Shown here one piece after another: positions 28,099-60,022 of a stretch of DNA of 64,000 bases (position 1 is its first letter; each line of letters opens with the position of its first letter). The notes beneath the pieces are model-generated. The model worked only from the letters and a program-made list of their open reading frames with translations, had not been told where the DNA came from and searched no databases. A program made the translations under genes and the position numbers. The stretch lies in the NCBI RefSeq assembly GCF_058153355.1, contig NZ_CM177019.1; one strand, written 5' to 3'.

Positions 28099-28125
28099 AA
28101 AAAATAAGCCCGTGTAAGGGAGATT
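28099..28125. other. attR: Prophage attR core (P2 att core sequence)
   Basis: aaaaaataagcccgtgtaagggagatt matches the P2 att core as I recall it; coincides with the cyaR terminator. Confidence 0.6.
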
Positions 28126-28185
28126 ACACAGGCTAAGGAGGTGGTTCCTGGTACAGCTAGCATTTTATGGGTTATGTTTTTCAGC
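28099..28185 (-). ncRNA. cyaR: Hfq-dependent sRNA CyaR (RyeE)
   Basis: Minus-strand sequence gctgaaaaacataacccataaaatgctagctgtaccaggaaccacctccttagcctgtgtaatctcccttacacgggcttatttttt matches CyaR from memory, with terminator hairpin and U-run; downstream of yegQ as in K-12. Confidence 0.8.
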
Positions 28186-28219
28186 GAAACGGATGATAAC
28201 CTTAATAAATGCAGCTGTA

Positions 28220-29836: not shown

Positions 29837-30574
29837 TTAAAGAAAGGGAATATAACCCCATAACTTGTTGTGAAGTTCCGGATTGCGGGTAAAAAGCGCC
29901 TGAAGTTGCTGACGCTGAGGAGCATTTGGTTGAATGCCCGAAAGATTGAATTTGCGTTGCCATATTGCGAGCTGTTTACCTGCAAATTCTTCAGTTAGCT
30001 TGTGTTGCGATTGCAGCAGAAGAATTAAACCGTCCCATTTGTTCAAACTATGATAAAGCCGACAATATGCGCAAGCATGTTTAACTGAAGGTGCGTTTTC
30101 CTGCAACTGCCGTATTTCCTCGAACGTGAGCGGAACGCGACACCATACACAGATGTTAACCATTAATCGCAGCCCGGTAGCGTCCGGGTTTGCCAGTGTG
30201 CTGAGAATAGTCTTTTTGACATCGCCATCAGGATTATCTTTTGCAAGAATGTGCATTGCGGCTAAACGCAGTGGGAATACATTCTGAGATAATCCCCATT
30301 CTGCCAGTTTTAAAATATTGGCATCATGAATGGAGTCCAGCCCGTATAAAGCTGCCCGGCGCTGTGAGGGAGTATATTCAGTCGAGGTGACAACATGACG
30401 CCAGAATTGCACAACATCCATGACGTCATTAAGCATGTTTTTAGCGCGTAGACGGATCAACATATTGTTATCCAGCAGTAATGCGCTGTACAACTCCGGA
30501 GGAATTTCTATAGCTCGGTCAGTAAGGCTAAACAACGTTGCTTGTCGAATTTGCGGGCGGTTATTTTCTGTCAA
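29837..30574 (-). CDS. Hypothetical protein, helical-repeat-like N-terminus and two CxxC pairs
   Basis: 245-aa ORF; CVWC and CAYC pairs near the C-terminus (CxxC-x30-CxxC); not recognised; lower GC than flanks by eye. Confidence 0.45.
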   Translation of the reverse strand: MTENNRPQIRQATLFSLTDRAIEIPPELYSALLLDNNMLIRLRAKNMLNDVMDVVQFWRHVVTSTEYTPSQRRAALYGLDSIHDANILKLAEWGLSQNVFPLRLAAMHILAKDNPDGDVKKTILSTLANPDATGLRLMVNICVWCRVPLTFEEIRQLQENAPSVKHACAYCRLYHSLNKWDGLILLLQSQHKLTEEFAGKQLAIWQRKFNLSGIQPNAPQRQQLQALFTRNPELHNKLWGYIPFL

Positions 30575-30614
30575 TAAGAATCTAAGTATCTTTAATCATT
30601 TCATCCCGGTCTGC

Positions 30615-31334
30615 TCAATCGACACGAAGGTAAGGGCCGTCTGCACTAACGTTGGCCCCGAAACCGCAGTCGTTCGGCGTATTGGTGCTTACTTCAAGCG
30701 TTTCGGTAGTAAGTTTGAGAGCAATATTGCAGTGAATCATATTGTCTGCATCATCACGCAATGCAATTACGCCTGTACCATTGTTCAGCGTTACAGATTC
30801 AGAAAACTCACCGATATTTGGCCCACTGTAAATGCCCATCATACCAAAGTAATAACCCTGAAAATCTACCTGCATCTTGCCTGTTAACCGCGCGGGTTTA
30901 AAGATGAACGTATTCCATGTCGCTTTGACCGCGTAGCTCCAGTATTCATTGGTTGTTGAAAAATCAGAGGGCAAAGCTGCGAGATTATCTTTGATAAGTT
31001 GCAAATTGTAGATGGATTTGGAATCTTGCGGTAGAAGCATGAGCCAGGCACGGGCTTTGCGCCATTGATTCTCACGCATCCAGGTTAGTGCGACATTGTT
31101 ATAAGCCGTGGCGATCGCTTTCTCATCATTAGCTTTACAGTCTTCACTCCATGCGGCTTGCTGTTCGAAGTATTTGCGTGCCGCAGGGTAGTTTTTCGCT
31201 TTATACAATGCCTGCCCCTGGCTTGCATACATGGTGATTTTCGCGCAATCAGCGTTAATTTGCTCGTCAGTTATCTCAGCATGTGCATTAGCCGACAATA
31301 GCAAAACTAAAGATATGACAAAGGGTAATTGCAT
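30615..31334 (-). CDS. Hypothetical secreted protein (signal peptide)
   Basis: About 239 aa from MQLPFVISLVLLLSANAHA (track ORF extends to 31427); not recognised. Confidence 0.45.
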   Translation of the reverse strand: MQLPFVISLVLLLSANAHAEITDEQINADCAKITMYASQGQALYKAKNYPAARKYFEQQAAWSEDCKANDEKAIATAYNNVALTWMRENQWRKARAWLMLLPQDSKSIYNLQLIKDNLAALPSDFSTTNEYWSYAVKATWNTFIFKPARLTGKMQVDFQGYYFGMMGIYSGPNIGEFSESVTLNNGTGVIALRDDADNMIHCNIALKLTTETLEVSTNTPNDCGFGANVSADGPYLRVD

Positions 31335-31432
31335 GTTAAATCCATTTAAAGTGAATAATTCCAGTCGTGATAGTATCGCCGTAAGAGGCGGAAATAAAGC
31401 CGGACGCCAACAACCCACGCCCGGCATCGTAA

Positions 31433-41500: not shown

Positions 41501-41680
41501 GTAGAGGGTGACCACCTGAATGGTTGGATAGTCCACTTCCGGCAGCGCCGAAACGGGCAGGGCGCGATAACCGATAATCCCGGCGAGTAAGATCGCCACC
41601 ATCAGCAGCGTGGTGGCAACAGGACGCATAATAAACAGGCGCGACGGACCGCCTGTGCTGCTCGGGGGTAACACCTGCAT
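38558..41680 (-). CDS. mdtB: RND multidrug efflux pump subunit MdtB
   Basis: 1040 aa RND transporter. Confidence 0.95.
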
Positions 41681-42927
41681 CAGGAGCGTGCTCCTTTTTT
41701 AGCGTATTCGCGGCTGGTGGCTTTCTCTTCCGAAGTGGTGGCGCTTTGAGCTTCAACCACTTCCACTTTCGCCCCTTCGGTCAGACGATCAATGCCATCC
41801 GTCACTACGCGGTCGCCTGCAGAAATACCTGCGCGGATCACCACTTTCTGACTGTCCTGAATGCCCGGCGTCACCAGATGTTTGCTGACCTTGTTTTCGC
41901 TATTCAGCACCCAGACAAAATGGCCTTCGTTGCCCATTTGCAGGGCGGCGGTGGGGATCACCACGGCGTTTTGTTCGGTGTCGACTAACATGCGCGCGTT
42001 AACAAACTGATTGGGAAACAGCGCATCATCCTGATTATTAAAGCGTGCTTTCACTTTAATCGTACCGGTAGTGGCATCGATTTGGTTATCGAGACTTAAC
42101 AGCGTGCCTTCACTTAATTTCTTCGAGTTGGTGCGATCCCAGGCTTCAACAACCAGCGGTTTTCCGGCTTTTTGCGCCTGTACTACGGTAGTGATATCGC
42201 TTTCCGGCAGGGTAAAGAGCAAATCGATAGGATGCGTCTGGGTGATCACCACAATTCCGGTGGTATCACCACTGGAGATTTGGTTACCAACATCAACCTG
42301 CTTGAGACCAACGCGACCATCGACTGGTGCGGTGATGCGGCTCCAGTCGAGTTGCAGCTGCGCACTGGCGACGCTCGCTTCATCAGCCTTAATGGTACCT
42401 TCGGTTTCACTGACCAGCGCCTGTTGGGCATCCAATTCCTGACGGGAGACGAGATTGGTTTTTGCCAGTTGCTGATAACGCGCTAAATCACGGCGGGCGT
42501 TGGCTAGTGTGGCTTTATCTTTTGCCAGTTGCCCCTGAGCTTGTGCTAATGCAACTTTGAACTGGCTGGGGTCAATTTCTGCCAGTAAATCGCCTGCTTT
42601 GACCTGCTGACCCTCCTGGAAATGTAATGCCATCAGTTGACCATCTACGCGACTGCGCACCGTAACGGTGTTAGCAGCGGTAATCGTACCAAGCCCGGTG
42701 AGGTAACGCGGAACCGCCTGTTCCACGGCAGTTGCTGCCTGAACCGGGGCCAATGGGCCGGAACGCATACCACGGCGGCCACCGGCTGGCGACTGCTGTG
42801 CTTGCTTCGTCGCACCTGGCGCTGCGCTCTGGGATTCATTGCGGCCTTGCCAGAACCAGAAAGCGGCGATGGCGGCGATAACCACCACGATTACGATTAC
42901 CCAACGGGATTTATAACTGCCTTTCAT
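41680..42927 (-). CDS. mdtA: Membrane fusion protein MdtA
   Basis: 415 aa from [16 protein letters not shown] (track ORF extends to 43074). Confidence 0.93.
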
Positions 42928-43124
42928 CGTTAAGAGTTTCTCTTCCTGAAACGTTTCGCGGAATGATACTAGTGTAGCCAGCCAATAAGGGAGAAAAATG
43001 GAGGAATTATGAAACACTGTCGGGAATCGTCTGAATGACGGGCACTTTTGCGAGCACGCATCCAGTAATAACACAGGAAACTATTTTATCTACGCGTTAG
43101 CGATAGACTGCATTAAGGGCAAAA

Positions 43125-43265
43125 GGAGGTAGGCCGACGATTTCAGCGGGACGCTGAAACGGGAAAGCCCCTCCCGAGGAAGGGGCCTTAAATAAGGAAA
43201 GGGTCATGATGAAGTGGATCATCATCGTGGTGCTCTTAGTCGTTAGCTACCCAGCTTACTAAGAC
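43125..43265 (-). ncRNA. sib: Sib antisense sRNA (antitoxin) overlapping ibs copy 1; ends approximate
   Basis: By established knowledge Sib RNAs (~140 nt) are encoded antisense to and fully overlap ibs; boundaries not determinable here. Confidence 0.35.
43206..43262 (+). CDS. ibs: Ibs-family small hydrophobic toxin peptide (MMKWIIIVVLLVVSYPAY)
   Basis: 18-aa ORF in repeat unit 1; resembles IbsA/IbsB of E. coli. Confidence 0.7.
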   Translation: MMKWIIIVVLLVVSYPAY

Positions 43266-43452
43266 TACCAGGGCGGGGGAAACCCCGCTCAACCCTCACT
43301 CCTGAAAATATGCCTTCACGGTCAGAATGTCAATCCGCAGGCTTTGCAGTCTGCGATCCTGCCAGCAAATATTCTTTGCGAGTCGTTACGCAATAATCAC
43401 AGATGAAACTATTTTATCTAAGCGTTAGCGATAGACTGCATTCAGGGCAAAA

Positions 43453-43593
43453 GGAGGTAGGCCGACGATTTCAGCGGGACGCTGAAACGGGAAAGCCCCT
43501 CCCGAGGAAGGGGCCTTAAATAAGGAAAGGGTCATGATGAAGATACTCATCATCGTGGTGCTCTTAGTCATTAGCTTACCGGCTTACTAAGAC
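43453..43593 (-). ncRNA. sib: Sib antisense sRNA overlapping ibs copy 2; ends approximate
   Basis: As for copy 1. Confidence 0.35.
43534..43590 (+). CDS. ibs: Ibs-family small hydrophobic toxin peptide (MMKILIIVVLLVISLPAY)
   Basis: 18-aa ORF in repeat unit 2. Confidence 0.7.
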   Translation: MMKILIIVVLLVISLPAY

Positions 43594-43780
43594 TACCAGG
43601 GCGGGGGAAACCCCGCTCTACCCTCACTCCTGAAAGTATGCCTTCACAATCAGATTGTCAATCCGCAGGCTTTGTAGTCTGCGATCCTGCCAGCAAATAT
43701 TCTTTGCGAGACGTTACGCAATAATCACATGTGAAACTATTTTATCTGCAAGTTAGCGATAGACTGCTTGCATGGCGAAA

Positions 43781-43921
43781 GGAGGTAGGCCGCCGATTTC
43801 AGCGGGACGCTGAAACGGGAAAGCCCCTCCCGAGGAAGGGGCCTTAAATAAGGAAAGGGTCATGATGAAGCTACTCATCATCGTGGTGCTCTTAGTTATT
43901 AGCTGGCCAGCTTACTAAGAC
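43781..43921 (-). ncRNA. sib: Sib antisense sRNA overlapping ibs copy 3; ends approximate
   Basis: As for copy 1. Confidence 0.35.
43862..43918 (+). CDS. ibs: Ibs-family small hydrophobic toxin peptide (MMKLLIIVVLLVISWPAY)
   Basis: 18-aa ORF in repeat unit 3. Confidence 0.7.
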   Translation: MMKLLIIVVLLVISWPAY

Positions 43922-44135
43922 TACCAGGGCGGGGGAAACCCCGCTCTACCCTCACTCCTGAAGTTATGTTACTCCACCCTTATTGTCAATCTGTAAGTCC
44001 ACGTTCTTGCGGGGCGAATAGCAAAACCCTCTGCGCTTATGGGCCGAATTCTGAAAGTTGCTTTGCCTGCTCTTATTTCATTATTGCAGTCGGTATGATA
44101 CCGGACCTCAATAATTCTCTAAGAAAGGATTTCTT

Positions 44136-44795
44136 ATGAGCGAACAAATCACGTTTGCCACCAGCGATTTTGCCAGTAACCCGGAACCACGTTGCCCCTG
44201 CATTTTGCTGTTGGATGTTTCTGGTTCGATGAGTGGTAGACCTATTAATGAACTTAACGCCGGATTGGTTACCTTTCGCGATGAACTGCTTGCCGATTCG
44301 CTGGCCTTAAAAAGAGTGGAACTCGGTATTGTGACGTTCGGCCCGGTGCATGTGGAACAACCATTTACCAGCGCCGCTAATTTTTTCCCGCCCATCCTGT
44401 TTGCCCAGGGCGATACACCAATGGGGGCCGCCATTACCAAAGCCCTGAATATGGTTGAGGAGCGCAAACGTGAGTATCGCGCCAATGGTATTTCCTATTA
44501 TCGTCCGTGGATTTTCCTGATTACCGATGGCGCACCAACCGATGAGTGGCAGGCTGCTGCCAACAAGGTGTTTCAGGGGGAAGAAGATAAGAAGTTTGCC
44601 TTCTTTTCCATCGGTGTTCAGGGGGCGGATATGAAGACGCTGGCCCAAATCAGCGTTCGTCAGCCTTTGCCACTGCAGGGATTACAATTCCGTGAACTGT
44701 TTAGCTGGTTATCCAGTTCGCTGCGTTCGGTTTCCCGCTCCACGCCGGGAACGGAAGTTGTACTGGAAGCGCCAAAAGGCTGGACGTCAGTGTGA
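44136..44795 (+). CDS. yegL: von Willebrand factor A-domain protein YegL
   Basis: 219 aa, MIDAS-like DVSGSMSG motif. Confidence 0.9.
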
Positions 44796-59542: not shown

Positions 59543-60010
59543 AGTAAGTACAAAACCTATTCGTTGTATGACAAATGTCACAATTCGATCATGGATAAAT
59601 CGGGGCAAAAATGCAATGTTGCAGCACTATTTATCTCATATTATTTGAGGGTAATAACCTCACATTATCCCTGAATTAAAAGTGGTAATAATAAAACATT
59701 ATTTAAGAAATATCGCATGTGGAGGCGCAATATTAAATATTGTCAACCTAAAGAAACTCCTAAAAACCATATTGAATGACACTTAATATAATTCTTAAAA
59801 ATAGCCAATTGCCGAATTGTTACCTTGCCTGCTATTCCGTTAGCTGTAACACTTCCTCCTGCATTATTGGAGAGCCAATATTCAATTACCATAATGTCAC
59901 CTTATATTCGGAAGTTAATTTCCGCAATAACCCTTGCTCATCAACGATTGTATGCAGAGAGGGTTTGAAAAATTAAGCTAAATCAGTGTGTTGGTAGCTA
60001 AAAAGCCAGG

Positions 60011-60022
60011 GGCGGTAGCGTG
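60011..60022 (+). promoter_or_regulatory. ops element (GGCGGTAGnnTG) of a JUMPstart sequence in the wza leader, RfaH antitermination site
   Basis: ggcggtagcgtg about 180 nt upstream of wza. Confidence 0.65.

Follow-up and report, generated by a model that had tools for sequence, protein, structure and literature searches.

A tandem array of three probable Ibs/Sib type I toxin-antitoxin modules at mdtA-yegL, a copy-number-variable locus of Escherichia coli

Ibs/Sib modules of K-12 and Salmonella

Ibs/Sib modules are type I toxin-antitoxin systems in which a short hydrophobic peptide (Ibs) is encoded opposite an antisense RNA (Sib). SibC, which is encoded at the fau-serA locus opposite a 19-aa peptide, overlaps both the ribosome-binding site and the ORF of ibsC and is composed of the elements P1, P2, the P5 loop, P6, J1/7 and a P7 terminator. 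Its recognition domains are TRD1 (nt 46-68), located in the P5 loop, and TRD2 (nt 99-115), located in J1/7, and the P6 loop lies at approximately nt 87-94 (Han et al. 2010, PMC2943612). A SibC derivative that keeps either TRD is still able to repress, and only the alteration of both abolishes repression; likewise, a derivative carrying either of the two SibD TRDs represses ibsD. TRD2 requires the help of the P6 loop, and the nucleotides that discriminate are located in the variable loop regions (Han et al. 2010, PMC2943612). When Sib is missing, the peptide of 18-19 aa enters the inner membrane, which becomes depolarised, and ATP is lost, as is known for IbsC; mutagenesis of IbsC indicates that its N-terminus is tolerant while the hydrophobic centre and the C-terminus are required (reviewed in PMC8309996). 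IbsA/SibA of Salmonella belongs to the same toxin family but is a single copy at yqiK-rfaE with a peptide of 19 aa; the a and b subunits of the Fo part of ATP synthase are its proposed target, with an accompanying drop in ATP (Kim et al. 2025, preprint, 10.1101/2025.05.26.656083).

The intergenic region between mdtA and yegL of K-12 MG1655 is annotated with two modules, sibB/ibsB (b4437/b4668) beside mdtA and sibA/ibsA (b4436/b4667) beside yegL, and K-12 IbsA is a peptide of 19 aa (MMKHVIILVILLVISFQAY). A literature search on ibsB/sibB found nothing specific on IbsB toxicity. The original prediction for the DNA described here gave K-12 two copies at this locus and had itself raised the possibility of three, and the annotation agrees with the former. 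Ibs genes vary in number between strains, with seven in O157:H7 Sakai compared to five in K-12 (Fozo et al. 2010, PMC2887945). The family, the locus, the mechanism and the variation in copy number are already published or annotated in RefSeq, and the array described below is a known and ordinary one which matters little beyond its correct annotation.

Architecture of the array

The window is the whole stretch of DNA that was analysed, 64,000 nucleotides of contig NZ_CM177019.1. Between mdtA and yegL it contains an array (Table 1) that very probably represents three type I toxin-antitoxin modules of the Ibs/Sib family, all intact and in tandem, at the locus of K-12 sibA/ibsA and sibB/ibsB. Its sequence anatomy, its family membership (by covariance model and homology), its predicted fold and its distribution in the population were established directly. 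Tandem Repeats Finder detects a single array with 93% matches and no indels, and the period of 328 bp agrees with the unit size of about 330 bp that had been estimated beforehand. The three tandem modules of the original prediction are recovered as Rfam matches of 136.1-139.9 bits, as ORFs and through the annotation of the flanking genes. The third unit keeps the core, and according to the alignment of the units and the comparison of their flanks it is followed by a flank of the yegL-proximal type. Pairwise comparison of the units over 285 aligned positions gives 25-31 differences (approximately 90-93% identity), and the array is therefore not an exact duplication.

Table 1. Positions of the array, its parts and its flanking genes in the window
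Feature	Position	Strand	Basis or detail
mdtA, left flank	41680..42927	-	annotation in closest genome
Tandem array of 328-bp Sib/ibs (QUAD-type) units, 2.7 copies	43066..43962	.	TRF, three-unit alignment, flank comparison
Sib RNA, unit 1 (136 nt; terminator hairpin 43164-43189)	43162..43297	-	homology to K-12 sibB annotation
Sib RNA, unit 2 (136 nt; terminator hairpin 43492-43517)	43490..43625	-	homology to K-12 sibB annotation
Sib RNA, unit 3 (136 nt; terminator hairpin 43820-43845)	43818..43953	-	homology to K-12 sibB annotation
Rfam RF00113 match, unit 1	43191..43333	-	136.1 bits
Rfam RF00113 match, unit 2	43519..43661	-	139.9 bits
Rfam RF00113 match, unit 3	43847..43989	-	139.0 bits
Sib promoter, unit 1 (TTGACA-17-TATTTT)	43305..43333	-	promoter scan, 10/12 matches
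Sib promoter, unit 2 (TTGACA-17-TACTTT)	43633..43661	-	read from sequence
Sib promoter, unit 3 (TTGACA-17-TAACTT)	43961..43989	-	read from sequence
ibs ORF, unit 1 (MMKWIIIVVLLVVSYPAY)	43206..43262	+	translation; identical to RefSeq WP_100733666.1
ibs ORF, unit 2 (MMKILIIVVLLVISLPAY)	43534..43590	+	translation; identical to RefSeq WP_100733667.1
ibs ORF, unit 3 (MMKLLIIVVLLVISWPAY)	43862..43918	+	translation; identical to RefSeq WP_100249772.1
Variable patch 1 (ORF nt 10-13, codons 4-5; Sib P6 loop)	43215..43218; equivalents 43543-43546, 43871-43874		
Variable patch 2 (ORF nt 36-48, codons 12-16; inside SibC TRD1 equivalent, P5 loop)	43241..43253; equivalents 43569-43581, 43897-43909		
TRD2-target equivalent (J1/7, Shine-Dalgarno and start codon; identical in all units)	43188..43206; equivalents 43516-43534, 43844-43862		
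yegL, right flank	44136..44795	+	annotation in closest genome

The Rfam search for Sib RNA that had been proposed as a check finds SIB_RNA (RF00113; gathering score 56) on the minus strand of each unit, in every case over the full model. The first nucleotides of the alignment, UUGACA, are the -35 box of the Sib promoter, and its end falls short of the terminator hairpin. The Rfam coordinates were considered as the ends of the Sib RNAs and rejected, because the model sits approximately 33 nt upstream of the annotated K-12 RNA. The ends were taken from K-12 sibB, which places the 5' end 35 nt past the ibs stop codon and the 3' end 44 nt upstream of the ATG. All three Sib RNAs defined in this way begin with GAGGGU, and the corresponding promoters end 7 nt before the homologous +1 and qualify as strong by their match to the consensus. 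The promoter scan did not report the Sib promoters of units 2 and 3, whose -10 hexamers fall below its threshold, and the terminator scan found no canonical terminator in the array, the U-tracts that follow the hairpins being too short for its threshold. The 3' hairpin of Sib is followed only by UUUCC, as in K-12, and the annotated sib genes of K-12 likewise fall below the thresholds of both scans.

The predicted folds of the three Sib RNAs all have the architecture of K-12 SibB and SibC, with free energies of -59 to -62 kcal/mol (z -4.4 to -4.75 against shuffled sequences). They consist of a P1 closing stem, a 5' hairpin, a long hairpin, the AUGAUGA/UCAUCAU hairpin of P6, the single-stranded UUAUUUAA and a GC-rich terminator hairpin, and the parts that mark a Sib fold, namely the TRD1 loop within the long hairpin, P6, J1/7 and the terminator, are predicted in each.

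The three 18-aa peptides translate exactly as they were first quoted. Each ibs ORF is 57 nt long and lies wholly inside the antisense Sib, at Sib positions +36 to +92, and is equipped with an upstream Shine-Dalgarno sequence (AAGGAAAGGG) and a double ATG, both of which are intact in all three units. All three ORFs lie opposite a small RNA and conform to the hydrophobic pattern of 18-19 aa that defines the family (MMK/R ... [PSQA][AT]Y), and identical proteins in other genomes are named 'type I toxin-antitoxin system Ibs family toxin' by PGAP. Identity to K-12 IbsB increases along the array from 14/18 in unit 1 to 16/18 in unit 2 and 17/18 in unit 3, and the peptide of unit 3 is also that of the third unit of four-copy alleles. 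The peptides vary among the units at positions 4, 5, 13 and 15. The original prediction had located this variation at positions 4-5 and 15, which is accurate as far as it goes but overlooks position 13, where unit 1 has V.

A further ORF of 42-48 aa (MM.HFIMTLSLFKAPSSGGAFPFQRPAEI...) is repeated in each unit on the minus strand (43097-43225, 43425-43571 and 43753-43881). Its start is at the AUGAUGA in the P6 stem of Sib; it extends beyond the 3' end of Sib and has no obvious Shine-Dalgarno sequence. Rather than a gene, this ORF is probably a side effect of the ATGATGA/TCATCAT palindrome.

The array shares with K-12 sibB/ibsB the mdtA-proximal side of the same locus, the 18-aa type of peptide, the 136-nt length of Sib and its predicted fold, and the sibB overlap differs from those of units 2 and 3 at only 5-6 of 136 nt. 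Position 15 is F in IbsB of K-12 and Y, L or W in the window units, and positions 4-5 are LL in the former and WI, IL or LL in the latter; K-12 sibB furthermore has A at -18 in J1/7 where the window units have T, and K-12 has one IbsB-type unit at the locus compared to three in the window. With sibA/ibsA the array has in common the intergenic region and the flank downstream of unit 3, which is homologous to the ibsA flank, but the overlap of this yegL-proximal K-12 unit differs from those of the window at 37-38 of approximately 140 positions. SibC/ibsC is more distant still, with about 60 differing positions out of 140.

Proposed mode of action and cross-repression

Expression, toxicity and repression of the modules can be extrapolated from K-12 and Salmonella. 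In each unit a weak promoter on the plus strand would give rise to the ibs mRNA, from which the 18-aa hydrophobic inner-membrane peptide would be made, and a strong promoter with a perfect TTGACA -35 box on the minus strand would drive the 136-nt Sib, which is complementary to ibs over its whole ribosome-binding site and ORF. As Sib and its cognate ibs are encoded in cis, their complementarity is perfect. The P5 loop of Sib (TRD1) is predicted to pair with the 3' part of the ibs ORF and the single-stranded J1/7 (TRD2) with the ibs Shine-Dalgarno sequence. Pairing would then spread, leading to a block of translation and degradation of the duplex, and the toxin would be made only if the level of Sib falls.

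The recognition domains of SibC were transferred to the window units through the K-12 annotation. In the 136-nt overlap of Sib and ibs the units differ pairwise at 5-9 positions, compared to 37-58 in the same overlap of most K-12 pairs. The ten variable columns correspond to ORF nt 10-13, 36, 37, 44, 45, 48 and 86, of which nine fall within the 31 positions that had been defined beforehand as the P6 loop and the TRD1 equivalent (hypergeometric P = 5e-6). Patch 1 reads TGGA in unit 1, ATAC in unit 2 and CTAC in unit 3, and the P6 loop differs by 1-4 nt between the units. At the TRD2 site every non-cognate pair in the window contains a perfect run of 53 nt. At 0-24 nt, the perfect runs of K-12 pairs at this site are shorter; D-E reaches 36 nt, but J1/7 itself still differs there.

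The three Sibs of the window share TRD2, whereas both TRDs of SibC are different from those of its paralogues. Since TRD2 is identical in all units and either TRD alone is enough, the published domain swaps between SibC and SibD lead to the prediction that, on balance, each of the three Sibs would repress all three ibs mRNAs and that the modules would not be strictly orthogonal. Measured against the description of orthogonal paralogues that follows from Han et al. (2010, PMC2943612), the units fall short: they depart from one another in TRD1 and the P6 loop but have identical TRD2 and J1/7 sequences.

It is conceivable, if rather doubtful, that the three modules are strictly orthogonal after all, as is reported for most K-12 pairs, and that the differences in P6 and TRD1 form a selected discrimination code. 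Variation that is located exactly in the recognition loops would fit selection for discrimination; Han et al. (2010, PMC2943612) place the discriminating nucleotides in variable loops. Cross-repression is further called into question by the help that TRD2 requires from the P6 loop, which differs by 1-4 nt between the units. Strict orthogonality is however difficult to reconcile with identical TRD2 and J1/7 sequences inside a perfect 53-nt run, given that a matching TRD2 alone suffices for repression (Han et al. 2010, PMC2943612), or with the mere 5 of 136 nt that separate units 2 and 3; the P6-loop state is even shared by units 2 and 3 in strain M160133. The TRD1 patch is distinct among the units within each of the ten arrays examined, so that no array has one shared by two of its units, but in this small and non-independent sample a rough estimate of the chance expectation is about 0.2, which is not significant.

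Variation and possible reshuffling of the loop patches

A comparison across strains covered 25 IbsB-type units from ten arrays. Patch 1 occurs in the states TGGA, ATAC, CTAC and ATAT, which correspond to WI, IL, LL and IF at peptide positions 4-5, and patch 2 occurs as V-Y, I-L, I-W, I-F and I-Y at positions 13-15, with an invariant S at position 14. The states of the two patches combine freely in this set. The window has WI with V-Y in unit 1 and IL with I-L in unit 2, and the array of strain 2013C-4282, which is 98.6% identical to that of the window, has the reciprocal combinations IL with V-Y and WI with I-L. As all four combinations are observed, the four-gamete criterion implies recombination or short-tract conversion between the patches, and likewise recombination or gene conversion between units.

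A tentative proposal that would accommodate both the shared TRD2 and the mobile patches is that the mdtA-yegL array is a recombining cassette system, in which pooled Sib antitoxins protect mutually through TRD2 and the loop patches are reshuffled between units and strains. If this were true, it would imply diversifying selection on the recognition loops, on the toxin residues or on both. The combination of a shared TRD2 with shuffled loop patches is only a mildly new angle on the family, put forward here as a testable hypothesis. IbsB-type units that share TRD2 and differ almost only in two Sib loops make a convenient natural test bed for the specificity of antisense RNAs, on which it could be asked how large a mismatch in the loops specificity requires and whether type I modules arranged in tandem protect one another.

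Conservation of the units

An improbable alternative to three intact modules is that one or more of the units are decaying relics, where Sib is perhaps transcribed and ibs is silent or non-toxic, or in other words that the array belongs to a repeat family without toxin-antitoxin function. The putative ibs promoters, which were placed by homology to the primer-extension-mapped +1 of ibsC located 60 nt upstream of the ATG, are weak (TTCAGG-17-GACGAT, with GCCGAT as the -10 in unit 3), so that the toxin genes might be nearly silent, above all that of unit 3. The RefSeq label of K-12 IbsB is only 'putative toxic peptide'. Core variants, counted with at most one mismatch in 117 nt, are furthermore rare for units 1 and 2 (15 and 11 records, respectively); that of unit 3 is present in 693 records, which is hard to square with a relic. 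Decay is also at odds with the ORFs, Shine-Dalgarno sequences, double ATGs and Sib promoters, all of which are intact in the three units. Units 1 and 2 diverge by approximately 0.8% in the 119 nt of the overlap outside both patches compared to approximately 11% in the spacers, which argues for purifying selection or homogenisation, and the substitutions within the patches always retain large hydrophobic or aromatic residues (W, I, L, V, Y).

Copy number across E. coli

The locus with its flanks was searched against 5,426 complete E. coli genomes, and 60 rows were read at even steps down the ranking. Three copies are present at the locus in 30 of these 60 genomes and two copies in 26; one copy was found in two genomes, four copies in one, and the remaining genome has no match at the locus. 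An earlier sample of 40 rows gave the same picture. Three copies are the commonest state at mdtA-yegL in E. coli, and K-12 is among the lower-copy genomes, its two copies not being the typical state of the species. The arrays of O157:H7, O26 and O111 are made up of two IbsB-type units and IbsA, and CFT073-like strains have two IbsB-type units and lack IbsA. Complete E. coli genomes contain a median of two and a maximum of six IbsB-type units, and five places in this collection that match IbsB-type units lie on plasmids. Larger arrays or extra loci, and occasional plasmid-borne copies, therefore exist.

The array of the window, at 97.7-99.8% identity and likewise with three units, is found in nine complete genomes, independently obtained from human, cattle, pig, goat and food sources. 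In those of the nine that were examined PGAP annotates three Ibs family toxin genes, and the proteins of the closest genomes are identical to those of the window. The polymorphism itself is common, and this haplotype of it is rare (approximately 0.2% of genomes). Assembly errors are a known risk at tandem repeats, but a misassembled or duplicated third unit, which the original prediction had itself considered, can be dismissed since the units are 7-10% divergent, the same array recurs in these nine genomes and about half of all complete E. coli genomes have three copies. In a side comparison, the arrays of strains 2013C-4282, M160133 and R32_14_1F (97.7-99.3% identical to that of the window) differ from it mainly by swaps of the 4-nt P6-loop patch between units, in which WI and IL are exchanged or IL is replaced by LL or by IF.

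Origin of the three-unit allele

The original prediction of an extra copy holds in so far as the window has one unit more than K-12, but three copies are not peculiar to this strain, nor is the array the K-12 pair with one unit added. The latter arrangement was considered and rejected, as all three window units are of the 18-aa IbsB type, no 19-aa IbsA-type unit is present, and the best alignment of the array is to units 1-3 of four-copy alleles. The unit that adjoins yegL is of the IbsA type in K-12, in O157 and in alleles with four copies. The three-copy arrays of O157:H7, O26 and O111 and the four-copy array of strain SX45 have the locus, the 328-bp unit and the copy-number polymorphism in common with the window; unlike the array of the window they end with an IbsA unit beside yegL, and their combinations of patch 1 and patch 2 are different.

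Aligned to units 1-3 of SX45, the window is 96.8% identical over 1039 bp. Its third unit is identical to that of SX45 up to the region of the Sib +1 and then continues into the yegL-proximal flank, which in other strains follows ibsA and whose variant in the window is common to other IbsA-less alleles. Judged by its sequence, the array looks like a four-copy-type array from which the terminal IbsA unit is missing. Unequal exchange within the conserved core would be expected to yield such an array.

Other features of the window

Positions 1-28035 of the window are not collinear with the closest genome, that of 2020CK-00188. P2-like phages match the window from approximately 5540 to 28000, and phage fiAA91-ss matches at 97.2% over 86% of positions 3100-28000. 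Rfam locates CyaR at 28102-28187 on the minus strand, and the first 28035 positions look like a P2-family prophage inserted beside cyaR and yegQ. A stretch of 0.8 kb between yegQ and baeR (approximately 30556-31392) does not align with the closest genome, which has a gene for a HEAT-repeat protein and yegP in this place; either a local variant or an indel may account for this. Upstream of the wza-wzb-wzc genes for colanic-acid export, the plus strand contains a JUMPstart element (Rfam RF01707, 53.8 bits) at 59984-60022.
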